Under the pieces are notes generated by a model. It was not told where the DNA came from and searched no databases. It saw only the letters and a list, made by a program, of their open reading frames with translations. Positions 2,411 through 61,329 of a DNA stretch of 64,000 nucleotides are shown here, piece after piece (within the stretch, counting starts at the first letter, position 1; each line of letters begins with the position of its first letter). The position numbers and the translations under genes are program-made. Origin of the DNA: Sphyrna mokarran. Its lineage: Eukaryota. The stretch spans positions 19,034,001 to 19,098,000 of the forward strand of contig JAGIQG010000014.1 of the NCBI GenBank assembly GCA_024679065.1, in the 5' to 3' direction.

Positions 2411-2527
2411 CCCACATCTCAAATGAAGACCCCCTCCCACTTGCACTACTGTAGCCGCCTAAAACTTTCATTTCATGTCAGTCAGGGCACACAGTTCTGT
2501 TAGAATACAACTGCTGCCTACCCAACA

Positions 2528-5164
2528 AGAACATAGAACATTACAGCACAGAACAGGCCCTTCGGCCTTCGATGTTGTGCTGACCAATATAAAAAGCAAT
2601 GACCCTCCAAACTAAACCATTCCCTTCTCTTCCATATACTTGTCAACTAACCTCTTAAACACCACCAAACTTGGCGCATCTACAACTGCTGCAGGCAGGG
2701 CATTCCATTCCCGAACCACCCTTTGGGTAAAGAACCTACCTCTGATATCCGTCCTATAACTATCACCCCTTAATTTAAAGCTGTGTCCCCTTGTGCTAGC
2801 TTTCTCATCCTAGGAAAAAGGCTATCACTGTCCACCCTATCTAAACCTCTAATCATCTTATATGTTTCGATTAGGTCCCCTCTTAGCCGCCTCCTTTCTA
2901 ACGAAAACAACCTCAACTCCCTCAGCCTCTCTTCATAAGACCTGCCCTCCATACCAGGCAACATCCTGGTAAACCTCCTCTGTACCCTCTCCAATGCCTC
3001 CACATCCTTCTTATAATGTGGGGACCAGAACTGCACACAATACTCCAAGTGCGGCCGCACTAGAGTTTTGTACAGTTGCAACATGACGTTGCGGCTCCGA
3101 AATTCAATCCCCCTACCAGTAAAAGCTAAGACTCCATATGCCTTCTTAACAACCTTATCGACTTGATTGCCAACTTTCAGGGATCTATGCACATTTACAC
3201 CAAGATCCCTCTGTTCATCAACACTATTAAGAATCCTACCATTAGCCCTATACTCTACACATTTATTATTCCTGCAAAAGTGCATTACCTCACACTTTTC
3301 CACATTAAACTCCATTTGCCACCTCTCGGCCCAGCTCTGCAACTTGTCCAAGTCTCTCTGCCAACTATAACACCCCTCTTCACTATCTACCACTCCACCG
3401 ACTTTAGTGTCATCTGCAAATTTACTAATCCATCCTTCAATACCCTCATCCAGATCATTTATAAAAATTACAAACAGCAGGGGCCCCCAAACAGACCCCT
3501 GAGGTACACCACTTGTCACCGAACTCCACGATGAATATCTCCCATCAACCACCACCCTCTGTCTTCTATCTGCTAGCCAATTCCTAACCCAATTAGCTAA
3601 ATCACCCTCTATCCCATACATCTGCATTTCCTGCAGAAGTCTTCCATGGGCCACCTTATCAAACGCCTTACTAAGTCCATATATACCACATCAACCGCCT
3701 TATCCCCATCCACCTCTTTGGTCACTTTTTCAAAAAACTCAATGAGGTTAGTAAGGCACGACCTACCCTTCACAAAACCATGCTGACTACCCCCAATCAC
3801 TTCATTTCTCTCTAAATAACTATAAATCCTATCCCTAATAATTCTCTCCAATACTTTGCCCACAACAGAAGTAAGACTCACTGGCCTATAATTCCTGGAA
3901 GGTCTCTCTTCCCCTTCTTGAACAATGGGACCACATTCGCTATCCTCCAGTCCTCCGGAACCACACCCGTAACCAACGACTACCTGAAGATCAGAGCCAG
4001 AGGCTCTGCAATCTCCTCTCTTGCCTCCCAGAGAATCCTAGGGTAAATCCCGTCCGGCCCAGGGGACTTATCCAACTTCAAACCCTCGAGAATATCTAGC
4101 ACATCCTCCCTATCTACTACAATACTTTACAGTTTGCTACCCTGTACCTCAGTGTTCTCCATAACTACATTTACATCACCCTGTGTGAATACCGAAGAGA
4201 AATATTTATTCAGTGCCTCTCCAATCTCTTCAGGCTCCACGCACAACTTCCCCCTGCTGTCTGTGACTGGCCCTAATCTTGTCCTAACCAATCTTCTATT
4301 CTTAACATATCTAAAGAAAGCTTTAGGATTCTCCTTAATCCTATCAGCCAAAGTCTTCTCGTGTCCCCTCTTATCTCTCCTCAATTCACTCTTTAGCTCC
4401 CTCCTGGCTAATCTATAGCTATCCATTGCACTAACTGAGCCTTCAAGCCTCATCCTGACATAAGCCTCCTTTTTCCTTTTAACCAGCAAATCAACTTTTT
4501 TCGTACACCAAGGTTCTCTTACTCGACCATTTCCTCCTTGCCTGACAGGGACATACTTATCAAGGACTCGCAGCAGCTGCTCCTTGAATAAGCTCCACAT
4601 TCCAGATGTTCCCAGTCCCTGTAGTTTCCTAGTCCAATCTATGCACCCTAATTCTCCCCTGATGGCCTCATAATTACCCTTCCCCCAGCTATAACTACTG
4701 CCCCCAGCCTCACGCCTATCCCTGTCCATCACTAAGGTGAACGTAACCGAATTGTGGTCACTATCACCAAAATGTTCACTAACTTCCAAGCCTAACACCT
4801 GGTCTGGCTCATTGCCCAGCACCAAATCCAATGTAGCCTCACCTCTAGTTGGCCTATCTACATACTGAGTCAAAAAACCTTCCTGCACACTTTGTACTAA
4901 AACTGACCCCTCTAACGAGCTAGAGCTATAGCTATTCCAATCAATATTAGTAAAAGTTAAAGTCCCCCATAACAATTACCCTATTACTTTCACTCCTGTC
5001 CAGGATTGACTTTGCAATCCTTTCCTCTACCTCTCTAGAACTTTAGGAGGTCTATAAAAGACTCCCAACAGGGTGACCTCTCCTCTCCTGTTTCTAATCT
5101 CAGCCCATACTACCTCAACAGACACGTCTTCATCAAATTTCTTTTCTGTCACTGTGATACAGTC
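2528..5164 (-). mobile_element. Young CR1 (HER1-like) LINE, 5'-truncated, ORF2 broken
   Basis: Near-identical to the reverse complement of 41853-44500; (GTTCTAT)n tail; ORF2 split into 4127-4975, 3609-3881, 2770-3654. Confidence 0.97.
2611..5164 (-). pseudogene. Disrupted CR1 ORF2 (endonuclease-RT)
   Basis: ORF pieces contain SDH, QHGF, GVPQGS, FADD motifs but are separated by frameshifts and stops relative to the 922 aa copy. Confidence 0.92.
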
Positions 5165-13550: not shown

Positions 13551-13830
13551 TAGTGTCATAAGTAAGCTTACATTAACACTGCGATGAAGTTACTGAGAAA
13601 ATTCCCTAATCGTCACACTTCATTCCCTATTTGGGTACACTGAGAGAGAATTTAGCACAGCAAATACACCTAACCAACATGTCTTTGGACTGAGGGAGGA
13701 AATCAAAGCACCCCATTGGAACTCACGCAGACACAGAGAGAACGTGCTGACTCTGCACAGATAAGGCTGGGAATCGAACCCAGGTCGCTGACACTGTAAG
13801 GCAGCAGTGCTAACCACTGTGCCACCATGC
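13551..13830 (-). mobile_element. V-SINE (HE1-type tRNA head and V domain, non-CR1 tail)
   Basis: Reverse complement gtggcacagtggttagcactgctgcc...gggttcgattcc (A and B boxes); tail gtaacttcatcgcagtgttaatgtaagcttacttatgacact. Confidence 0.88.
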
Positions 13831-14257
13831 CTGCCTTCAGGGAACAGTGATTTTGTACAGTTACAAACTGTCCACCTGGTGCAGTATTTATTCCATTTCT
13901 GGGTTAATGACAGGACCTTGATGTTTCTAGAGGTCAGTAAAGTGCAGGAAAAGTCAAATGTTGATTGCTTTCAAATCTGCCGTATCTGTTTTGTCCAATT
14001 TTGCAGATCCAGTGATGGTGTTCGGTGAATGCACAGCAGCTGGGTACCATTTACAAAGCTCACAGTAAATTCTGTGATGGCCTCAGATGGTTCATGCTGA
14101 AAATCTGCAAAACAGCTGTTGGGAAAGCAGCATTTTATTGACTCACGAAAACACAGAGCATACAGATCATAGTCAGCTGCTTCAATAGGAAGATTATGAT
14201 CCCAACAAACTCACCTTTCTGCCTGAAGGATGGCATATCGTCACAAGGGACTCTTGC

Positions 14258-20392: not shown

Positions 20393-20912
20393 TTTATAGT
20401 CATAGCTATCAAAGCAAATCATTAAAATTCCAGACAATACACGTGAAAAATCAAATGATATTTCATTTCCATTTTAAAGCTGAAACCTGTCACTCTATGG
20501 AGTGGGCACATGCTTTAAAGATATCTGAACATTTATATCTCAATCCAAAACATGACAGGGGAGTTTGCCAGCACATTTTTCTCCTGTTTGGAATGCATAT
20601 GGCACTTTCTCCATTGGGAAAAGTACTATTATTCATATCAACAGTTACATAATAGTAAAAACACATTTACCTTAACATGTAGCACTGAATACTGATATTT
20701 GAAGATGCTAAAACATGTAACAACTACTTGTCACAATGTTCCAGACTTCTCAAATGGTCTACCCTCAATGGTCATGCACTCAACAAGAAAGTGTATTTTT
20801 TGGCACTTCCAAAACACATATCCACACATGAAAATAGTGCGGGAAAATAAAATCACATTTTCCATGTTCCTCAAAATGGAGACCCCCAATCTCAAAAGAA
20901 TGCACGTGCATT

Positions 20913-21229
20913 TGGGGCAGCACAGTGGTACAGTGGTTAACACTTCTGCCTCACAGGGACCCCAGTTCAATTCTAGCCTCAGGTGACAGTGTGGAGTTTG
21001 AACATTTTCCATATTTGCATGGGTTTCCTTCAGGTGCTCCAGTTTTCTCCCGCAGTCCAAAGATGTGCGGATTAGGTTGGTTGGTCATGATAAACTACCT
21101 CATCACGTCAGGGGCACCAGCAGGGTAAATATGCAGTGTTAGGGGGTTAGGGCCTTAATGAGATTATCATTGGTGCGGACTCAATTGGCCAATTGGCCTC
21201 ATTTTGCACCATAGGGATTCTATGATTCT
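20913..21229 (+). mobile_element. HE1-type V-SINE with CR1-like tail
   Basis: tRNA-like head, V domain gggtttccttcaggtgctccagttttctcccgcagtccaaagatgtgc, tail gggattctatgattct. Confidence 0.88.
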
Positions 21230-21999: not shown

Positions 22000-22295
22000 A
22001 GTTTAAGTTCATTTATGAATCCACAAGTAGGCTTACATGAATATGCCAAAGCAGGCTCAAAGGACCAAATAGCCTCCTTCTGCTCCTACTTTCTATGTTC
22101 CTATGTTAACATTGCAATGAAGTTACTGTGAAAATCCCCTAGTAGCCACACTCTGGTGCCTGTTCGGATACCCTGAGGGAGAATCTTACTGTAGTCAATG
22201 CGCCTAACCACCATGTTTTTCAGACTGTGGGAAGAAACCAGACCACCCAAAGGAATTCCACGCAGATAAGGGGAGAATGTGCAGACTCCACACAA
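22000..22295 (-). mobile_element. V-SINE (non-CR1 tail) with a short CR1 3' end inserted at about 22045-22105
   Basis: cacaagtaggcttaca ... ttaacattgcaatgaagttactgtgaaaatcccctag is split by gcaggctcaaaggaccaaatagcctcc...ctatgttcctatg. Confidence 0.8.
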
Positions 22296-32249: not shown

Positions 32250-32575
32250 GGGTGGCACGGTAACACAATGGCTAGCACTGCTGCTTCAAAGCTCCAGGGA
32301 CTTGGGTTTGATTCCCAGCTTGGGCCACTATCTGTGTGGAGTTTGCACATTCTCCTCGCGTCTGCGGGGGTTTCCTCTGAGTGCTCCGGTTTCCTCCCAC
32401 AGTCCAAAGATGTGCGGGTTAGGTTGATTGGCCATGCTAAAATTGACCATAGATGCATAGCTTAGAGAGGATTAGTAGTCAACATATGTAACGACTGGGG
32501 GTAGGGCTTGGGTGGGATTGTGGTCAGTGGAGGCCAAAGGGCCTTTTTCTGTACTGTAGGATTCTATGATGATTT
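32250..32575 (+). mobile_element. HE1-type V-SINE with CR1-like tail
   Basis: Full tRNA head, V domain and tail ggccaaagggcctttttctgtactgtaggattctatgat. Confidence 0.92.
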
Positions 32576-34415: not shown

Positions 34416-35372
34416 CAGGGATTTTTGGAATCCTTTTGAGAAGGCATTTCGTCACCACATGAGGTGTCATTTGTTTCCAATTTATTGTGCTGCCATACAA
34501 AGTAGATTTTACATTTGCCAACATAATAAAAGTGAGTGCACTTCAAAGTAATTCGCCAGGCAGGAAGTGCTTTGCAATGTCTCTGAGAGATGTGACCAAG
34601 TGTGAACTAATTCTTTCCTTCTTAAATATCCAAGCAGGTTGCTTTCAGAGACTCGGATTCTGAAGCTAATGTACTGATCTGAGCAGAAGAAGAAAGGATC
34701 TCCACAATTGTTTCATGAATCAGCTGCATTATTCCAAGTGGTCTCTGGAGAGCCTATATCCACATTGGCACCATTGAATAATATTTGTACGTCAATTTAG
34801 TAAAATGCCTCAGTCATAAAATATACTAGATATCAGCACTAATGAGGTCCCTCTTTTCAAGCCTTCAATTTATTCAGTTTGAAACCTGAGGGGATTTTGA
34901 AGACAATTGTCTATTCATTGATGTATTTGGCTAATGCAATGACTTAGATGAGTCAATAAATTTTTCTTACCTACACTGGCTCCTGGTCCTCAATGTTTCA
35001 AATGTAAATTCTCATCCTTGTATTTAAACCAGTTCACAGACTTGCCCTGCTCTATGTCTATAAATTATTCTAACTCTACAACTTATACCCTCTGCTCCAC
35101 CATTCCTCAGGTTCAGATTTCCTGTTGTCTACTCCCTGCCCTCAGCCTGTGACCTTTGCCCTTCTCTGCACCCCCCTCTGGTGCAATCATATCCTTCCTA
35201 TAATGTGGCAACCAGAATTGCACACAATATTCAAGTTGTGGCCCCACCAAACTCCTATAAAACTCTAACATAATTTGCCTGCATGTAATCTATGCATCGA
35301 GTAATAAAGGAAAGTGTCCAATATGCCTTTTTCACATCCAATGAACAAGTTCTTCCACCTTCAAAGATCTAT

Positions 35373-35587
35373 GGATTTTTGCAGTAACTTCATTGCAATG
35401 GTAATGTAAGCTTACTTGTGATACTGATAAATAAACAAAAAAATCCTTAATTCATTGTTCCTTAACTTGTAAATGATGTCTTCACATTTGTCCCAATAAA
35501 TTAGGCATTAGCTCTCCTGCTGTTGACTGCAGATTACATGGAATTCCATAGGGGTGAAATACTCATTTCATCATTTTTATTTTCAAT
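35373..35587 (+). repeat. Locally templated insertion copied from 34187-34415
   Basis: Interrupts the CR1 sequence between gatctatgga and agtccctttgctcc. Confidence 0.93.
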
Positions 35588-37421
35588 AGTCCCTTTGCTC
35601 CTCAGAATTTTCTAGTGTCATGCCGTTCATTGAATACGTTCTTGTCAAATTATTCCTTCCAAAGTGTATCACCTCACACTTTGTCGGTTAAATTCCATTT
35701 GCCATTGTCCACCCATTTGACCATTCTATCCACATCTTCTTTAGCCCAAAACACTTGGCCTCATTGTTAACAACCTGGCCAAACTTTGCTCATCCGCAAA
35801 ATTACTTAGTCTTCCCCTGACATAGACATCTACATTGTTTATATAAACTATGAATAATTGAGGACCCAACACACATCCCTATGGTACAGCACTAGACACT
35901 GGCATCAGTCACTAAAGCAGTTTTTTGCCATCATCCTCTGTCTCCAACAATTAAGTCAAATTTAAATCCACCTTATCAAATTACCCTGTATTCCATGTGC
36001 ATTTGCCTTCTTTACAAATCTCCCATGTGGGAACTTGTCAAAGGCTTTTCTGAAAGCCATAGAAACTACATCAACTGCATTCGCCTCATCTGCACACTTG
36101 GTCACCTCCTCAAGAATTTCAATCACATTTATTAGGCATGATCTCTCTCTGATAAAGCCAGGCTGATTATCCAAGTAGTGATAGATTCTCTCCTTCAGAA
36201 TTTTCTCCAATAGTTTTCCTACCACTGATGTAAAGGTCTCTATAAGCCTTCTCTAATTGGCAGAACCTCATTAACTGTTCTCCAGTCCTCTGGCACCTCC
36301 AACTGTGGTCAGAGAGGAATTAAAAATTTTTGGTCAGAGCACCAGCAATCTCCTCCTTTGCCTCTCCCAACAATTCATCTGGACCTGGATATTTGTCCAC
36401 TTTTAAGCTTGCCAACACCTCCAATACTTCGTCACTCCCTATGTCAGTTTACTCAAGAATCTTGCAGTCCCTCTCCCTGAATTCCATAGTTTCATTCTCA
36501 TTCTCTAGAGTGAAGATGAATGTGAAGGATTTGTCAACAGTCTACCCTTGTCCTTGCCCTCTAATGAACCCCACTCTTTCCCTGATTATCCTCTTCCTAT
36601 TCATATACTTATAGAGTATCTTCAGATTTTTCTTGTGCTTTTACCAGCCAGAGCTTCCTCATACCCCTCTTTGCTTTCCTAATTGCTTCCTTAAGCTCCA
36701 CTCTGCCCTTTCTGTACTCCACTAATGCCTCCACTAACTTGCAACCTTTCAATCTACTGGAAGTCTCTTTTCTTTCTTATCATATCATGACTATCTCTGG
36801 TCATTCATGTTTCCCTGGGCTTGTAACTCCTCCCTTCACCTTAGAGGGTGAATATTGGGCCTGTAGTCTCCCCACTTCTTTATTGAATGTCCCTTCTCCT
36901 TAACCCTTACCACTGCTTTTCTGTAGAGTTCCCCATAAGTAGCTGTTCCCAATCTACTTTGGCCAGATCTTGCTTTATTTTACTAAAATCTACTCTCCCA
37001 CAATCCAAAACATTTTTTGTCTATTTTTTTGTCCATAACAAGCTTAAATTGTACTATGCTGTTGTCGCTATCACTAAAATGCTCCCAACTACCATCTCAA
37101 CAATCTACCTGGCTTCATTCCCCAGAATTAGGTGCAGCACTGCACTGTCCCTTGTTAGACTCTCTACATATTGACCTAAAAAGCTCTTCTCTACACATTT
37201 CAAGAAATCCACTTCCTCTAAGCCCTATATCTAACTCAAATAATGTTGGATAATCATCTAATATAATAACCCTATTTTTAATTGTTTTTGCACACTTTCA
37301 TAAATTGCTCCTCAATTTCCTATTAACTATCTGGGGGTCTATAATAAACACCCAGCAATGTGGCTGCCCCTTTTTTATTCCTAAGCCCCACCCAGAAAGC
37401 ATCATTCAATGCTTGCCTCAA

Positions 37422-37541
37422 GACCGGAAAAATCTTCCCAAGGTCAATAGACTTTTGCGTGGTCCACTCCATCCACCCCCACATCCACCCCTGTCTGCCC
37501 AATATGATTCCCGTAGTGAGGAGGATGGGAAAATTTTGCCC
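37422..37541. mobile_element. MITE fragment
   Basis: Ends ggatgggaaaattttgccc, the same TIR as 22863-22918. Confidence 0.6.
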
Positions 37542-38218
37542 ACCATCCCTCCTTGCTGCAATAACTAACTACTTAATTAAAATGCAATGCCTCTTCCTCT
37601 TTTACCCCGTCTCACCTGAAGATTCTTTTTCCTGGAACTTTGAGCTGCCAATCCTGTCCTTCCCTCAACTACATTCTGTGATGGCTACTATATCACAATT
37701 CCATGTGACAATCCTCACCTTTAACTCATCCAGTTTAACTGTAATACTCCAGGCATTAAAATAGAGGTCATCCAGCCTTACCTTACTACCTTGAATTTTA
37801 ATACAACCATATTCCCTCTGACTTGATTACTTTATGTTGTGTCCCAATTCTGCTAACAGCTTGCATCTCCTCCCGCTGCCAAATTAATTTAAACTCCTTG
37901 CAACAATACTAGCAAACAAGCCCACATGGATGTTACTCCTGCTCTGGCTCAGATGTAGACTATCTAGACTACATGTCCTGCCTTCCCCAGCAATAGTTGC
38001 AGTGATCTAAGAATGTGAAACTCTCCCCCTGCACCAACTCTTAAAGCTCGCAATTATCTGCACCATTCTATTCCTTGTTCGCTAGCACATGGCACACAGA
38101 GTAATGCAAAGATTACAAATCGGGGAGTTCTGCTTTTTAGTCTGCTGCCTAGCTCCCTGAATTCTTGACGCAAGACCTTATCCCTCTTTCTATCTATGTC
38201 ATTGGTACCAACATGTAC

Positions 38219-38885
38219 CTGAAAGTAGGCAGTCAAGTGGATAAAGTTGTTAAGAAGGCATATGGAGTCTTAGCTTTTATTGGTAGGGGGATTGAATTTA
38301 GGAGCCGCAGCATCATGTTGCAACTGTACAAAAAACTCTAGTGCGGCCGCACTTGGAGTATTGTGTGCAGTTCTGGTCGCCACATTATAAGAAAGATGTG
38401 GAGGCATTGGAGAGGGTACAGAGGAGGTTTACCAGGATGTTGCCTGGTATGGAGGGCAGGTCCTATGAAGAGAGGTTGAAGGATTTGAGGTTGTTTTCGT
38501 TAGAAAGGAGGCGGCTAAGAGGGGATCTTATTGAAGCATATAAGATGATTAGAGGTTTAGATAGGGTGGACAGTGATAGCCTTTTTCCTAGGATGGAGAA
38601 AGCTAGCACGAGGGGACACAGCTTTAAATTAAGGGGTATGAGTTATAGGACGGATATCAGAGGTAGGTTCTTTACTCAAAGAGTGATTAGGGAGTGGAAT
38701 GCCCTGCCTGCAGCTGTTGTAGATGCGCCAAGTTTGGTGGCGTTTAAGAGGTTAATTGATAAGTATATGGAAGAGAAGGGAATGGTTTAGTTTGGAGGGG
38801 CATTGCTTTTTATTTTGGTCGGCACAACATCGAAGGCCGAAGGGCCTGTTCTGTGCTGTAATGTTCTATGTTCTATGTTCTATGT
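38219..38885 (+). mobile_element. Young CR1 3' fragment inserted into old CR1 ORF1
   Basis: Near-identical to 43840-44505; atgtacc duplicated at 38213-38219 and 38882-38888. Confidence 0.97.
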
Positions 38886-40895: not shown

Positions 40896-41432
40896 GAAGC
40901 AAATTGTGACAAAGACTTTGAAAGAAACTACGAGGACAGAGATGGGTGAGTAGGATGAACAGACGATTGTTTGATGATTCAAAAATGGCTACTTGTTAGT
41001 CAGAATCTAAAATGCCAGCCTAGATCAGGGACCAGTATTCAAGTACTGTGACGGCTATGCACTAAAATGCTTCCGTCATGTTTCATAAGGTATCATGAAA
41101 TTAAGATTCATAAAACTTTTGGGAAATGCTTAATGTGAAAGTTTAACTCATGTAAAAATGTATTAGTTTGTCAGTGACATGAAATATCCCCATGATTAAA
41201 ACAATGAATGTTTTCATTGGTAAGAACTGACATTAGTTGGGAGGTTACAGTGATATTAATGTGAAAATACTTAATGCATTACTACAATAGTTCTCTGTTC
41301 ACTAGGCTGATGTACAGAATAGCCCACCTATAATAAATGGATAATATCTGTTAAAAATTAATACAGCACAAAGGCGATAAGTCTTGACACATTCACATGG
41401 CAGTTACTGCAAAGTAATGTCTTTCTCTACAA

Positions 41433-41528
41433 GACCTCTACAAGAGAGATGGTCCACACCTGAACGAGAGGGGAACTAATATCTTGGGGGGAAAATTTGC
41501 TAAGGCTACGCAGGGGGCTTTAAACTGA
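41433..41528 (+). pseudogene. C-terminal remnant of CR1 ORF1 (SGNH esterase-like)
   Basis: Translates DLYKRDGPHLNERGTNILGGKFAKATQGALN*; DGxHLN is the esterase DxxH motif of CR1 ORF1. Confidence 0.85.
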
Positions 41529-41640
41529 TTCGGGGGGGGGTGGGATCCTAAGTAGTTGGGGTGCTAAGAGGGATGAGAGTAAAGGGGTCATAGAGGAAAG
41601 CTGTAAAACACAGCAGCGTACGGGTGGGGTAGGGCATGGT

Positions 41641-44409
41641 TTGAAATGCGTATACTTTAATGCAAGCAGTATTCACAATAAGGGGGAGGAACATGCAGCT
41701 TGGACCAGTACCTGGGACTTCGATGTTGTGGCCATTTCAGAGACTTGGGTAGAGCAGGGACAAGAATGGATGTTGCAGGTTCCGGGGTTCAAATGCTTTA
41801 GTCAGAGTAGAGAAAGAGGTAGAAGGGGGGGAGGAGTGGCATTATTAGTCAAAGACTGTATCACAGTGACAGAAAAGATGTTTGATGAGGACTTGTCTGT
41901 TGAGGTAGTATGGGCTGAGATTAGAAACAGGAGAGGAGAGGTCACCCTGTTGGGAGTCTTTTATAGACCTCCTAAAAGTTCTAGAGAGGTTGAGGAAAGG
42001 ATTGCCAAGTCAATTCTGGTCAGGAGTGAAAGTAATAGGGTAAGTGTTATGGGGGACTTTAACTTTACTAATATTGATTGGAATAGCTATAGCTCTAGCT
42101 CGTTAGAGGGGTCAGTTTTTGTACGAAGTGTGCAGGAAGGTTTTTTGACTCAGTATGTAGATAGGCCAACTAGAGGTGAGGCTACATTGGATTTGGTGCT
42201 GGGCAATGAGCCAGACCAGGTGTTAGGCTTGGAAGTTAGTGAACATTTTGGTGATAGTGACCACAATTCGGTTACGTTCACCTTAGTGATGGACAGGGAT
42301 AGGCATGAAGCTGGGGGCTGTAGTTATAGCTGGGGGAAGGGTAATTATGAGGCCATCAGGGGAGAATTAGGGTGCATAGATTGGACTAGGAAACTACAGG
42401 GACTGGGAACATCTGGAATGTGGTGCTTATTCAAGGAGCAGCTGCTGCGAGTCCTTGATAAGTATGTCCCTGTCAGGCAGGGAGGAAATGGTCGAGTAAG
42501 AGAGCCTTGGTGTACGAAAAGAGTTGATTTGCTGGTTAAGAAGAAAAAGGAGGCTTATGTCAGGATGAGGCTTGAAGGCTCAGTTAGTGCAATGGATAGC
42601 TATAGATTAGCCAGGAAGGAGCTAAAAAGTGAATTGAGGAGAGCTAAGAGGGGACACGAGAAGATGTTGGCTGATAGGATTAAGGAGAATCCTAAAGCTT
42701 TCTTTCGATATGTTAAGAATAGAAGATTGGTTAGGGCAAGATTAGGGCCAGTCATAGACAGCAGTGGGAAGTTGTGCGTGGAGCCTGAGGAGATTGGAGA
42801 GGTACTGAATAAATATTTCTCTTCGGTATTCACGCAGGGTGATGTAAATGTAGTTATGGAGAACACTGAGGTACAGGGTAGCAAACTGGAAAGTATCGAA
42901 GTAGATAGGGAGGATGTGCTAGATATTCTCGAGGGTTTGAAGTTGGATAAGTCCCCTGGGCCGGACGGGATTTACCCTAGGATTCTCTGGGAGGCAAGAG
43001 AGGAGATTGCAGAGCCTCTGGCTCTGATCTTCAGGTCGTCGTTGGTTACGGGTGTGGTTCCGGAGGACTGGAGGATAGCGAATGTGGTCCCGTTGTTCAA
43101 GAAGGGTAAGAGAGACCTTCCAGGGAATTATAGGCCAGTGAGTCTTACTTCTGTTGTGGGCAAAGTATTGGAGAGAATTATTAGGGATAGGATTTATAGT
43201 TATTTAGAGAGAAATGAATTGATTGGGGATAGTCAGCATGGTTTTGTGAAGGGTAGGTCGTGCCTTACTAACCTCATTGAGTTTTTTGAAAAAGTGACCA
43301 AAGAGGTGGATGGGGGTAAGGCAGTTGATGTGGTATATATGGACTTTAGTAAGGCGTTTGATAAGGTGGCCCATGGAAGACTTCTGCAGAAAATGCAGAT
43401 GTATGGGATAGAGGGTGATTTAGCTAATTGGGTTAGGAATTGGCTAGCAGATAGAAGACAGAGGGTGGTGGTTGATGGGAGATATTCATCTTGGAGTTCG
43501 GTGACAAGTGGTGTACCTCAGGGGTCTGTTTTGGGGCCCCTGCTGTTTGTAATTTTTATAAATGATCTGGATGAGGGTATTGAAGGATGGATTAGTAAAT
43601 TTGCGGATGACACTAAAGTCGGTGGAGTGGTAGATAGTGAAGAGGGGTGTTATAGTTTGCAGAGAGACTTGGACAAGTTGCAGAGCTGGGCCGAGAGGTG
43701 GCAAATGGAGTTTAATGTGGAAAAGTGTGAGGTAATGCACTTTGGCAGGAATAATAAATGTGTAGAGTATAGGGCTAATGGTAGGATTCTTAATAGTGTT
43801 GATGAACAGAGGGATCTTGGTGTATATGTGCATAGATCCCTGAAAGTAGGCAGTCAAGTCGATAAGGTTGTTAAGAAGGCATATGGAGTCTTAGCTTTTA
43901 TTGGTAGGGGGATTGAATTTCGGAGCCGCAACGTCATGTTGCAACTGTACAAAACTCTAGTGCGGCCGCACTTGGAGTATTGTGTGCAGTTCTGGTCCCC
44001 ACATTATAAGAAAGATGTGGAGGCATTGGAGAGGGTACAGAGGAGGTTTACCAGGATGTTGCCTGGTATGGAGGGCAGGTCTTATGAAGAGAGGCTGAGG
44101 GATTTGAGGTTGTTTTCGTTAGAAAGGAGGCGGCTAAGAGGGGACCTTATCGAAACATATAAGATGATTAGAGGTTTAGATAGGGTGGACAGTGATAGCC
44201 TTTTTCCTAGGATGGAGAAAGCTAGCACGAGGGGACACAGCTTTAAATTAAGGGGTGATAGTTATAGGACGGATATCAGAGGTAGGTTCTTTACCCAAAG
44301 GGTGGTTCGGGAGTGGAATGCCCTGCCTGCAGCAGTTGTAGATGCGCCAAGTTTGGTGGCGTTTAAGAGGTTAGTTGATAAGTATATGGAAGAGAAGGGA
44401 ATGGTTTAG
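41641..44409 (+). CDS. CR1 LINE ORF2: APE-like endonuclease and reverse transcriptase (922 aa; frame open from 41524, true start unknown)
   Basis: EN motifs YFNA, ISETW, YRPP, GDFN, LDL, SDH; RT motifs YRPVSLT, QHGF, DFSKAFD, GVPQGSVLGP, FADD; no internal stops. The track start codon is TTG, not ATG. Confidence 0.95.
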   Translation: MKCVYFNASSIHNKGEEHAAWTSTWDFDVVAISETWVEQGQEWMLQVPGFKCFSQSRERGRRGGGVALLVKDCITVTEKMFDEDLSVEVVWAEIRNRRGEVTLLGVFYRPPKSSREVEERIAKSILVRSESNRVSVMGDFNFTNIDWNSYSSSSLEGSVFVRSVQEGFLTQYVDRPTRGEATLDLVLGNEPDQVLGLEVSEHFGDSDHNSVTFTLVMDRDRHEAGGCSYSWGKGNYEAIRGELGCIDWTRKLQGLGTSGMWCLFKEQLLRVLDKYVPVRQGGNGRVREPWCTKRVDLLVKKKKEAYVRMRLEGSVSAMDSYRLARKELKSELRRAKRGHEKMLADRIKENPKAFFRYVKNRRLVRARLGPVIDSSGKLCVEPEEIGEVLNKYFSSVFTQGDVNVVMENTEVQGSKLESIEVDREDVLDILEGLKLDKSPGPDGIYPRILWEAREEIAEPLALIFRSSLVTGVVPEDWRIANVVPLFKKGKRDLPGNYRPVSLTSVVGKVLERIIRDRIYSYLERNELIGDSQHGFVKGRSCLTNLIEFFEKVTKEVDGGKAVDVVYMDFSKAFDKVAHGRLLQKMQMYGIEGDLANWVRNWLADRRQRVVVDGRYSSWSSVTSGVPQGSVLGPLLFVIFINDLDEGIEGWISKFADDTKVGGVVDSEEGCYSLQRDLDKLQSWAERWQMEFNVEKCEVMHFGRNNKCVEYRANGRILNSVDEQRDLGVYVHRSLKVGSQVDKVVKKAYGVLAFIGRGIEFRSRNVMLQLYKTLVRPHLEYCVQFWSPHYKKDVEALERVQRRFTRMLPGMEGRSYEERLRDLRLFSLERRRLRGDLIETYKMIRGLDRVDSDSLFPRMEKASTRGHSFKLRGDSYRTDIRGRFFTQRVVREWNALPAAVVDAPSLVAFKRLVDKYMEEKGMV

Positions 44410-44889
44410 TTTGGAGGGGCATTGCTTTTTATATTGGTCGGCGCAACATCGAAGGCCGAAGGGCCTGTTCTGTGCTGTAATGTTCTATGTTCTATGTTCT
44501 ATGTTCTCACCAATTGTAATACTTCAAGAAAAACAAAACCATCAATTAAATTTCCTTCTACAGCTTTCTTAGTGCATCTTGATTTGTAGTGAGCGAAGAA
44601 ACAAAATTCACATCAAAACAGCAACAACTCATAGAAATGGAATATATTGTCCGGTGCACAGGAGATGTTTTACGAGAATTTACCAAATCATCAATAATTC
44701 ATAATAAAATGCTCAGTAGTCTGGTTTCAGGTAATATAGAAGGCCACATAGAGATTTTCCCCACAGAAAAGTGGACTTGGTTTTAAGGGTTGGCTTGATT
44801 TTAACTCTGGGCAAATGAATGATTTTTTCATGAGTCAATTACAAGGCAGTCAGATACAATTGCCTTATACATAAGAAATACAATCAAAA

Positions 44890-45020: not shown

Positions 45021-45182
45021 TGACAATCCTAACTCCTCACCACCCTCCAAGTGAATAGGGCACAAATATTCTATGGGATTCAACAAAGACTGTGAGCATG
45101 ATCTTATTAGTTATCACTAATGTGTATCAGGGTGGGGGTATTCTAGCAACAGGAAAGGGAGACGTCAGCCAATTAGTGGCAT

Positions 45183-45465
45183 GGGTGCCACAGTGGTTAG
45201 CACTGCTGCCTCACAGCACCAGAGACCCAGGTTCAATTCTGGCCTCGTGTCACTGTCTACGTGGAGTTTGCACCTTCTCCGAGTGTCTGTGTGGATTTCC
45301 TCCAGGTGCTCTGGTTTCCTCCGACAATCTAAAGATGTGTGAGCTAGGTTGATTGGCTATGCTAAAATGGCCCTTAATGTTAGGGTCATTAAAAGAGGTT
45401 ATGAGATTGAGCCCTGGGTGGGATTGTTGTCGGTGCAGGCTTGATGGGCCAAATGGCCTCCTTCA
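45183..45465 (+). mobile_element. HE1-type V-SINE
   Basis: cacagtggttagcactgctgcctcacagcaccagagacccaggttcaattc head plus V domain and gatgggccaaatggcctcc tail. Confidence 0.9.
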
Positions 45466-53715: not shown

Positions 53716-54005
53716 GTGGCACAGTGGTTAGCACTGCTGCCTTAGTGCCAGGGACACGGTTTCGATTCCTGGCTTGGGTCACTGTCTATGTGGAGTCTGC
53801 ACCTTCTCCCAGTGTCTGCGTGGGTTTCTTCCAAGTGCTCCAGTTTCCTCCCACAGTCCAAAAGATGTGCTGGTTGGGTGCATTGACCACGCTAAATTCT
53901 CCCTCACTGCACTTGAACAAAGTGTGGCAACTAGGGGATTTCCCCAGTAACTTCATTGCAATGTTAGTGTAAATTTACTTATGACACTAATAAATAAGCT
54001 TGAAA
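53716..54005 (+). mobile_element. V-SINE (non-CR1 tail)
   Basis: tRNA head, V domain, tail cagtaacttcattgcaatgttagtgtaaatttacttatgacactaataaa. Confidence 0.9.
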
Positions 54006-55685: not shown

Positions 55686-55998
55686 GGGCAACACGACAGT
55701 TCAGTGACTATCGCTGTGCTGTGCAGATACATGGATTTGGGCCTGTGTCTGTGGGAGTTTGCGCATTCTCCCCGTGCTTGCGTGGGTTTTCTCTGGGTGC
55801 TTCGGTTTCCTCCCACATCCCAAAGATGTGCTCTTAGGTTAATTGGCAAAACAAATTCTCCCTAAACTGTCTCAAATTTCGTTTTTTAATCCATAGATCT
55901 ATAAACATAGACAGGGATCGCAGGTAGAGGTGGGAACATCGGGGTGGCGGCGTGGGCTCGTTGGGCCATGCTGTTTTGTTCTTTGTTCTTTGTTCTTT
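55686..55998 (+). mobile_element. HE1-type V-SINE with CR1-like tail
   Basis: V domain tctccccgtgcttgcgtgggttttctctgggtgcttcggtttcctcccaca; (TTTGTTC)n tail like the CR1 at 6822. Confidence 0.85.
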
Positions 55999-59189: not shown

Positions 59190-59994
59190 ATAGAACATAG
59201 AACATAGAACATTACAGCACAGAACAGGCCCTTCGGCCCTCGATGTTGTGCCGACCAAAAATAAAAAGCAATGCCCCTCCTAACTAAACCATTCCCTTCT
59301 CATCCATATACTTATCAACTAACCTCTTAAACGCCACCAAACTTGGCGCATCTACAACAGCTGCAGGCAGGGCATTCCACTCCTAATCACTCTTTGAGTA
59401 AAGAACCTACCTCTGATATCCGTCCTATAACTCATACCCCTTAATTTAAAGCTGTGTCCCCTCGTGCTAGCTTTCTCCATCCTAGGAAAAAGGCTATCAC
59501 TGTCCACCCTATCTAAAACTCTAATCATCTTATATGTTTCGATAAGGTCCCCTCTTAGCCGCCTCCTTTCTAACGAAAACAACCTCAAATCCCTCAGCCT
59601 CTCTTCATAAGACCTGCCCTCCATACCAGGCAACATCCTGGTAAACCTCCTCTGTCCCTTCTCCAATGCCTCCACATCTTTCTTATAATGTGGGGACCAG
59701 AACTGCACACAATACTCCAAGTGCGGCCGCACTAGAGTTTTGTACAGTTGCAACATGATGCTGCGGCTCCTAAATTCAATCCCCCTACCAATAAAAGCTA
59801 AGACTCCCTATGCCTTCTTAACAACTTTATCCACTTGACTGCCTACTTTCAGGGATCTATTGACACATACACCAAGATCTTTCTGTTCCTCAACACTATT
59901 AAGAGCCCTACCATTAGCCCTATACTCTACACATTTATTGTTCCTGCCAAAGTGCATTACCTCACACTTTTCCACATTAAACTCCATTTGCCAC
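59190..59994 (-). mobile_element. Young CR1 3' fragment
   Basis: Near-identical to the reverse complement of 43698-44505; cacaat duplicated at 59186-59191 and 59992-59997. Confidence 0.97.
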
Positions 59995-60499: not shown

Positions 60500-60802
60500 A
60501 TTTATTTAATTATTGTCACAAATAGGTTTACATTAATATTACAGTGAAGTCACTGTGAAAATCTTCTAGTTGCCACACTTTAGCACCTGTTCGGGTTTGC
60601 TGAGGGAGAATTTTTTAGCATAGCCAATGCACCCTAACTAGCACGTCTTTCAGACTGTGGGAGGAAACCAGAACACCCAGAGGAAACCCATGCAGACATG
60701 GGGAGAATGTGCAAACTCCACAGAAACATTGACCCAAGCCAGGAATCGAACCAGGGTTGCTGCACTGAGGCAGCAGTACTAACCGCAGTGCCACTATGCC
60801 AC
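60500..60802 (-). mobile_element. V-SINE (non-CR1 tail)
   Basis: Reverse complement of the 53716-54005 type. Confidence 0.9.
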
Positions 60803-61329
60803 TCCAACTTTGACACCATGCATCTGATGTGGGAACAGAACGTTGAGGGAAAGACCACTTTCTTAAGAACAAACCTGTCCAGTTTTGAAAACAGTGGCAA
60901 ATTTTAGACAGAATTGGAGAGTCCAAGTTCATTCATTGCAACTTCAACCAAGAATGAAAACTAGCAAGACCAGCTATGTGCAAAAGATACCTGATAACAT
61001 ATAAAAAAACACTTCTCTACCAAGAACTACAGAAAAGATCGAGCCTCTTTATAGCCAGTATTTTCTAGTAGCATCTAACACTCTTAGCTAATCCCACTGG
61101 GAAAAAGTGGGAATGTATGGCTTAATTTCAGAGCACCATGATGAACACCATTCAGAAGAGAGGCGGTCTCCGAGGACCAGTTACCCCAGCACTTCCTGCC
61201 CTTGCTACAATGTATTCTCTTGCAAATACGCCCATGAATCTTTACAAACAGGTGAAGTGCATCACCCGTATCTCCATTCGCCTCATTATGAGTAATGAAC
61301 TTGAATAAAAGAGAACAAACACAGGGGAA

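Follow-up and report, generated by a model that had tools for sequence, protein, structure and literature searches.

Among the closest described counterparts of the locus analyzed here are coronavirus ORF1a/1b and the gag-pol genes of retroviruses and LTR retrotransposons, which have in common with it an in-phase U_UUA_AAC heptamer, a polymerase ORF without a start, placed in the −1 frame in most CR1 relatives, and, for CR1 as a prediction, a structural protein in excess. In contrast to these sites, the CR1 junction has no conserved pseudoknot or stem–loop 5–9 nt downstream, its stop codon follows directly after the heptamer, and the host element is a non-LTR retrotransposon. A stop directly after the slippery heptamer is known from Rous sarcoma virus. 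According to the portions of these sources that were available, few heptamers slip as readily as U_UUA_AAC on mammalian ribosomes (PMC5009743), and −1 frameshifting usually needs a structure 5–9 nt downstream (PMC8915115). The arterivirus (PRRSV) nsp1beta/PCBP frameshift, as described in the available parts of the same two papers, involves no structure and a homopolymer-rich linear motif about 11 nt downstream, which the CR1 site may resemble; the PRRSV motif is C-rich with known binding proteins and the CR1 motif is G-rich, and the likeness is an analogy only.

Among LINEs, L1 (AUG-independent reinitiation) and SART1 (UAAUG coupling) resemble CR1 in having a bicistronic RNA from which little ORF2p is needed, but both yield a separate ORF2p, whereas the CR1 layout predicts a fusion, usually without an AUG. 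The known answers to how LINE ORF2 is translated are variants of reinitiation and 2A skipping, and the available sections of PMC3894237, PMC3708506, and PMC5009743 call the matter an open question. The non-LTR frameshifting cases found in the available part of the 2016 review are HeT-A gag and an unresolved TART, next to L1 initiation (PMC5009743), and CR1 has 0 occurrences in the text of that review that was searched. CR1 is the dominant bird transposon, at 11.8% of the chicken genome (PMC11835228, available part). The vertebrate CR1 elements with an SGNH-esterase ORF1 (type IVB, CR1 subgroup 7; PMC4120745, available part) share with the element described below the esterase ORF1, the APE and RT ORF2, the tandem-repeat tail, and heavy 5′ truncation; neither their mode of ORF2 translation nor a slippery site at the ORF1 stop was found in the parts of the literature surveyed. 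As for CR1 junction sequences, the portions seen of the supplements of PMC4316615, PMC8665684, PMC6007501, PMC11303007, PMC4120745, and PMC3905857 hold 3′ ends or nothing.

The CR1 junction in the Sphyrna mokarran window

The window is the whole stretch of DNA analyzed, 64 kb of repeat-rich eukaryotic sequence in which CR1 is abundant. Dispersed repeats of 200–300 nt, 72–83% alike and probably SINEs, lie at 13551–13831, 20912–21102, 22106–22295, 32252–32451, 45175–45376, 53716–53997, 55737–55863, and 60502–60807. A young CR1 family is present in four copies, each truncated at a different point; three of them (2524–5164, 38218–38885, and 59190–59994) lack the ORF1/ORF2 junction, each being truncated downstream of its site, and the fourth retains it. 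The features of this copy, and the junction of a second, older copy, are listed below.

41428..44507, plus strand: young CR1-clade LINE copy, 5′-truncated inside ORF1 (sister-copy identity, domains, and tail)
41430..41528, plus strand: C-terminal remnant of ORF1, an SGNH esterase (DGxH motif, last helix, and tail ending in Leu-Asn), with its TGA stop
41519..41525, plus strand: slippery heptamer T_TTA_AAC, the last two ORF1 codons, directly 5′ of the stop; the −1 frame gives Phe-Lys-Leu
41532..41540, plus strand: G-run, G9 in this copy; candidate stimulator and probable site of a frame-disrupting indel
41541..41566, plus strand: weak local hairpin, predicted by folding in the window copy only; not conserved
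41549..41551, plus strand: TAA closing the −1 frame in the window copy, whose junction is out of register
41524..44409, plus strand: ORF2, with an unconserved linker of 43 codons, an APE endonuclease from YFNA (41653), and a reverse transcriptase
37868..37893, minus strand: junction of the older CR1 copy, with T_TTA_AAT (heptamer at 37893), a TAA stop, a 6-nt spacer, and an AG plus G-rich motif

The 5′ edge of the young copy is approximate (41428–41433), with a short target duplication possible; the copy is 97.4% identical to the sister copy at 2524–5164 across 2646 nt and ends in an (ATGTTCT)n tail at 44480–44507. It is a dead, 5′-truncated insertion, G-skewed along its whole length (GC skew 0.45). 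About 32 ORF1 codons are left, matched at 41421–41522 by a profile that included the window piece itself, and weakly similar (E 0.002) to the ORF1 of the relatives described below, which is Pfam Lipase_GDSL_2 and homologous to the ZfL2-1 ORF1p esterase (4C1B). ORF2 consists of 961 open codons, carries the Pfam endonuclease and RVT_1 domains, and matches L1 ORF2p and EN structures. With APE and RT in ORF2, an SGNH-esterase ORF1, a tandem-repeat tail, and 5′ truncation, the element is a CR1-clade LINE of the esterase ORF1 type. The nearest named proteins to ORF2 come from Narcine bancroftii (a ray; closest), Grus japonensis, and Ranitomeya imitator, the ray protein pointing to a cartilaginous fish as the likely host, and a tree built from a short endonuclease alignment, with no Repbase or Dfam CR1 references in it, groups the element with a Narcine protein. 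Searches of plasmid and phage collections gave zero matches. A TTTAAA near the ORF2 C-terminus (window 44242–44251, and the sister copies) encodes an in-frame Phe-Lys-Leu; it is coding sequence with no junction.

At the junction, ORF1 ends in GCT TTA AAC TGA, with the stop at 41526–41528. The initial annotation had placed TTTAAAC at 41519–41525 in X_XXY_YYZ phase with ORF1, followed by a cluster of G-tracts and by a −1 frame (FKLIRGGVGS) that stops at 41549–41551, and all of these coordinates are correct, the G-tracts being G9 at 41532–41540, GGG at 41542, GGGG at 41558, and GGG at 41570. It had also described ORF2 as open from 41524 with no ATG before YFNA, which holds, and its first Met as residue 44 of the listed protein, a number that matches a protein begun at the TTG at 41641, just 5′ of the endonuclease. 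In the stop-to-stop ORF, residue 44 is the start of YFNA, and the first Met is residue 83 (ATG at 41770). Because the first ATG lies 3′ of YFNA and of the ISETW glutamate, which aligns with IQETH of the L1 endonuclease, an intact endonuclease cannot start there.

ORF2 of the window copy is in the +1 frame relative to ORF1, and the junction is thus out of register, probably through an indel at the G-run, by mutation or assembly error. The indel assumed in the initial annotation is plausible, as 3 of the 13 related junctions described below (L007, L011, and L012) have indels in or beside the G-run. Three other routes into ORF2 were rejected: a direct +1 shift in the window copy allows no re-pairing on inspection, a direct −2 shift puts a stop in the A site, and CUG initiation overlapping the TGA is countered by CTA at that place in relatives. 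TTTAAAC occurs 17 times in the window on both strands, and in phase within the coding frames of five CR1 ORFs at 1 of 3517 positions. As TTTAAAC alone is common, it is the conservation of the heptamer directly 5′ of the ORF1 stop in distant lineages that makes it more than chance.

The older copy, a decayed member of another CR1 family (35176–38217, minus strand), retains part of an esterase ORF1 and an equal junction layout; a young-family 3′ fragment (38218–38885, plus strand) is inserted into its ORF1. Its −1 frame reads FKLIWQ and is open for 31 codons, the copy being too decayed for its register to be read (130 nt). A homologue search with its ORF1 piece gave zero matches.

The junction in related elements

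Genome contigs were scanned with an endonuclease alignment that did not presuppose the heptamer, which gave 23 loci (L001–L023) of eukaryotic CR1-like DNA within assemblies labelled bacterial or archaeal, 15 of them in one MAG; animal-type LINE copies in such assemblies indicate host DNA contamination. The esterase-ORF1/ORF2 junction is spanned by 13 loci, namely family B (L003–L006, L008, L010–L013, L015, and the diverged L018) and family C (L007 and L009). Left out were L001, L002, L014, L016, L017, and L022, truncated in or 3′ of the linker, and L019–L021, without an esterase ORF1 or a heptamer-stop. The 13 junctions are many copies of two or three families and not 13 independent events, so that about four independent DNA lineages are represented: window young, window old, B, and C. 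Some copies start inside the linker (L001:2542–2656, L002:2872–3016, and L016), L001 being truncated exactly at the G-run; ORF2 of L001 and L002 is free of stops across 920 codons.

T_TTA_AAC_TAG ends ORF1 in all 13 junctions (in L018, the last ORF1 codons only), and in all 13 a G-run begins 11 nt after the heptamer, in a CA/TA-G6 motif. ORF2 is in the −1 frame at 11 of 13, with 126 or 111 nt between heptamer and endonuclease; ten of these are fully open and one has a point stop. The two out-of-register copies and one compensated copy have their indels within the G-run or next to it, a spot that is altered in the window copy as well. The checks on relatives proposed in the initial annotation included the register of ORF2, expected to be −1 relative to ORF1, and any conserved in-frame ATG before the endonuclease; besides the register just given, the protein P0121 reads FKL into the endonuclease, and an in-frame linker ATG occurs at none of the 13 DNA junctions, the first Met lying 17 residues inside the endonuclease domain in 11 of them. 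The distant esterase-type CR1-like locus L023 (2276–2860) has an ORF1 end without the heptamer, followed by a G-rich stretch; the slippery signal is therefore not universal among esterase LINEs.

ORF1 ends in Leu-Asn in 101 of 120 homologues, from a search that returned families B and C only. Homologues that have lost the stop mostly continue in the frame that the −1 layout calls for; of those in family C, five proteins fit the reading of L009 and one that of L007. The ESM Atlas gave one weak GDSL lead. In family C ORF1 (L007:1656–2912), the esterase is preceded by an SH3 domain (Pfam SH3_9, E 7e-9), and an SH3 family is annotated in 14 of the 120 homologues; the combination of SH3 and esterase was not met in the parts of the literature surveyed.

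Beyond the window, the vertebrate evidence consists of protein sequences alone, ascertained through ORF callers. The best match, P0121 (58% identical), has FKL, 43 residues without Met, and then the endonuclease motif in one frame, FKL sitting 46 residues before the motif. Among anchored proteins with at least 42 residues upstream of the endonuclease motif, FKL-x-x-[Q/K/R/G/L]-[G/W/E] is found in the ORF2 frame of 3/4 shark-like, 1/6 frog-like (Ranitomeya), 4/22 bird-like, and 6/7 B-like proteins, or 14 of 39 within the clades against 0 of 72 outside them (where there are two bare FKL); for these counts the span searched was widened from 75 to 130 residues and Leu was added post hoc, both groups then being handled alike, P0134 and P0155 were put in clades by eye, and the shark-, frog-, and bird-like labels rest on the tree and on named neighbours. 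The motif is absent from 18 of 22 bird-like and 5 of 6 frog-like long N-termini; many of these N-termini resemble chimeric gene models, and five of those models keep the downstream KGEG part. Outside the esterase clades, P0035 and P0233 carry a bare FKL about 100–130 residues before the endonuclease, by chance or as a related signal. P0032 and P0130, in which an indel fuses the ORF1 esterase and ORF2 in one frame, are single genomic copies that illustrate the predicted fusion and are probably merely mutated.

The conservation at the junction is of nucleotides as well as of amino acids. ORF2 of the window element is 36–41% identical to those of families B and C (36–60% among all three), and of the 106 invariant dipeptides in these three ORF2 sequences just one keeps an identical 7 nt in the slippery phase, as does 1 of 56 in a second trio; a single codon is shared at 1 of 27 invariant Leu columns of the first three. 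The ORF1 tail that begins at DGxH differs in length (26, 31, and 32 aa) while the heptamer stays fixed at the stop. Past their first 25 nt the linkers are mostly unalignable between families (z reaches 3.0 between window and B, and at most 2.1 in other pairs), and with the variable ORF1 tail this delimits a conserved island of heptamer, stop, about seven free bases, and AG plus a G-run. The linkers of family B and L018 differ by 2 synonymous and 18 non-synonymous codons; with no amino-acid constraint on this linker, dN/dS gives no support, which comes only from the open frame and unchanged length. Taken at the level of sequence, T_TTA_AAC at the ORF1 stop is a real, deeply conserved feature, maintained beyond what the amino acids would need.

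Probable −1 frameshifting, its candidate stimulator, and competing explanations

Programmed −1 frameshifting is probably the way in which the esterase-type CR1 LINEs of this group produce ORF2, as an ORF1–ORF2 fusion. From the heptamer, its phase and its place at the stop, the −1 register of the relatives, the missing ATG, the 7-nt conservation, and the G-run spacing, we infer ribosome slippage, a fusion protein, and a stimulator. Most ribosomes would terminate after Leu-Asn and release ORF1p. The others, fewer in number, would shift one base backwards when UUA occupies the P site and AAC the A site, re-pairing with UUU AAA; they would miss the stop, translate the unconserved linker of 37–100 codons, and enter the endonuclease. 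The product would be a low-frequency, Gag-Pol-like ORF1p–ORF2p fusion. Points against frameshifting include that the window copy is out of register, that the searches gave no second junction of this exact family, and that no conserved downstream structure is present.

The last point bears on the stimulator. Folding of the window copy gives z −1.18 for 115 nt and z −2.7 for positions +6 to +55, and in B, C, L018, and the older copy downstream folding is no better than in shuffles (z −1.1 to +1.7). No conserved stem–loop or pseudoknot was found 5–9 nt downstream by folding without an explicit pseudoknot model, Rfam gave 0 matches, and no homologous site is the best long-range pairing partner for the G-run in all families. 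With no conserved fold, Rfam match, or shared long-range partner, the site departs from the canonical pattern of a shift stimulated by a downstream structure. The fusion by −1 frameshifting put forward in the initial annotation is well supported by the comparative tests of register, ATG, and 7-nt conservation; its proposal that a G-quadruplex formed by four G-tracts stimulates the shift is not supported. In the window copy itself, eight G-runs of at least three fall within 130 nt and ViennaRNA predicts a quadruplex there, and G-quadruplexes are able to stimulate −1 shifting (PMC8915115, available part). However, the four G-tracts are not conserved downstream: within 130 nt, family B contains just one G-run, no quadruplex is predicted for B, C, or L018, and the window element is G-skewed throughout, its G9 being probably an indel site, which leaves this version improbable. 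Our best guess, drawn by analogy and disfavouring both pseudoknot and G-quadruplex on the sequences compared, is that the candidate stimulator is a linear G-rich motif 10–11 nt downstream, possibly protein-bound and perhaps acting with the adjacent stop.

The main rival to frameshifting is termination–reinitiation, AUG-independent as in L1 or by UAAUG as in SART1, with a restart in the linker at an AUG or near-cognate codon; the heptamer would then be a by-product or a termination-context signal. The AUG-independent version is the one to be weighed, because it operates in L1 and because near-cognate codons lie just 5′ of the endonuclease (TTG in the window, ATT and TTG in family C). Reinitiation is reported for other LINEs (PMC3894237, PMC5009743, and PMC10275272, in the parts available), and a linker Met occurs in five of the eight vertebrate-like FKL proteins, one of which, P0134, has it directly after FKL, where a UAAUG stop-start is possible. 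These Met positions are unfixed, however (4, 18–19, 26, 35, and 38), the near-cognates fall at differing codons, and Met starts in databases include converted codons, the family B proteins starting where the DNA has TTG. A SART1-type AUG at or near the ORF1 stop is absent from the window and from all 13 DNA junctions, P0134 being the one candidate. As reinitiation also leaves the 7-nt slippery-phase conservation and a −1 frame open from the heptamer unexplained, we regard it as unlikely.

The heptamer could also persist because Leu-Asn serves ORF1 protein function, with heptamer and −1 register inherited by descent and no role in recoding. The prevalence of Leu-Asn among the ORF1 homologues is in keeping with this, as is the frequent use of TTA for Leu (41/86 in family B and 31/78 in family C). 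In the window ORF2, however, TTA accounts for just 16 of the 83 Leu codons, synonymous change is for the most part saturated, similarity to the solved esterase of ZfL2-1 stops about 11 profile positions before Leu-Asn, and neither the constant spacing of the G-run nor the lack of an ORF2 start is explained, so that this reading is very unlikely. A further option is that splicing or internal initiation, through an acceptor or a start close to the junction, generates the transcript for ORF2. This would fit the bird-like models that join foreign exons just 5′ of FKL or at the TAG position (P0155, P0169, P0187, and P0193; P0158, P0168, and P0181), but these are predicted gene models. The AG at the stop is not conserved, the window family having TGA and the older copy TAA, which counts against splicing; the ORF2 frame of L009 closes four codons before the heptamer, and splicing offers no reason for a slippery heptamer, making this explanation scarcely credible.

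What the finding means for CR1

As a mechanism, −1 frameshifting is known. For CR1, the 1997 chicken and turtle papers reportedly show ORFs that overlap or lie close together, and frameshifting may have been remarked on there. No report of frameshifting for CR1 ORF2 was found in the parts of the literature searched, a scope outside which lie those 1997 primary papers and Kapitonov and Jurka 2003, and the finding is probably novel for CR1 LINEs.

A conserved slippery site makes the question of ORF2 translation directly testable. If the frameshifting reading is true, the CR1 enzyme would be an esterase–endonuclease–RT fusion, ORF2 annotations begun at the first Met would miss catalytic residues, and what CR1 retrotransposition assays must keep intact would be defined, with an unusual stimulator indicated. 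A wider and more tentative reading, which we hold possible and short of probable, is that shark, amphibian, and bird elements, together with those of one or more distant hosts, have kept the CR1 frameshift and its fusion product since their common ancestor, with a structure-free stimulator made of the adjacent stop and G6 at a fixed 10-nt spacing, bound by a protein of the host or of the element, possibly ORF1p itself as feedback on the dose of the enzyme. On that reading, CR1 would have a LINE polymerase expressed by frameshifting, and its stimulator, linear and G-rich, would be of a new kind.
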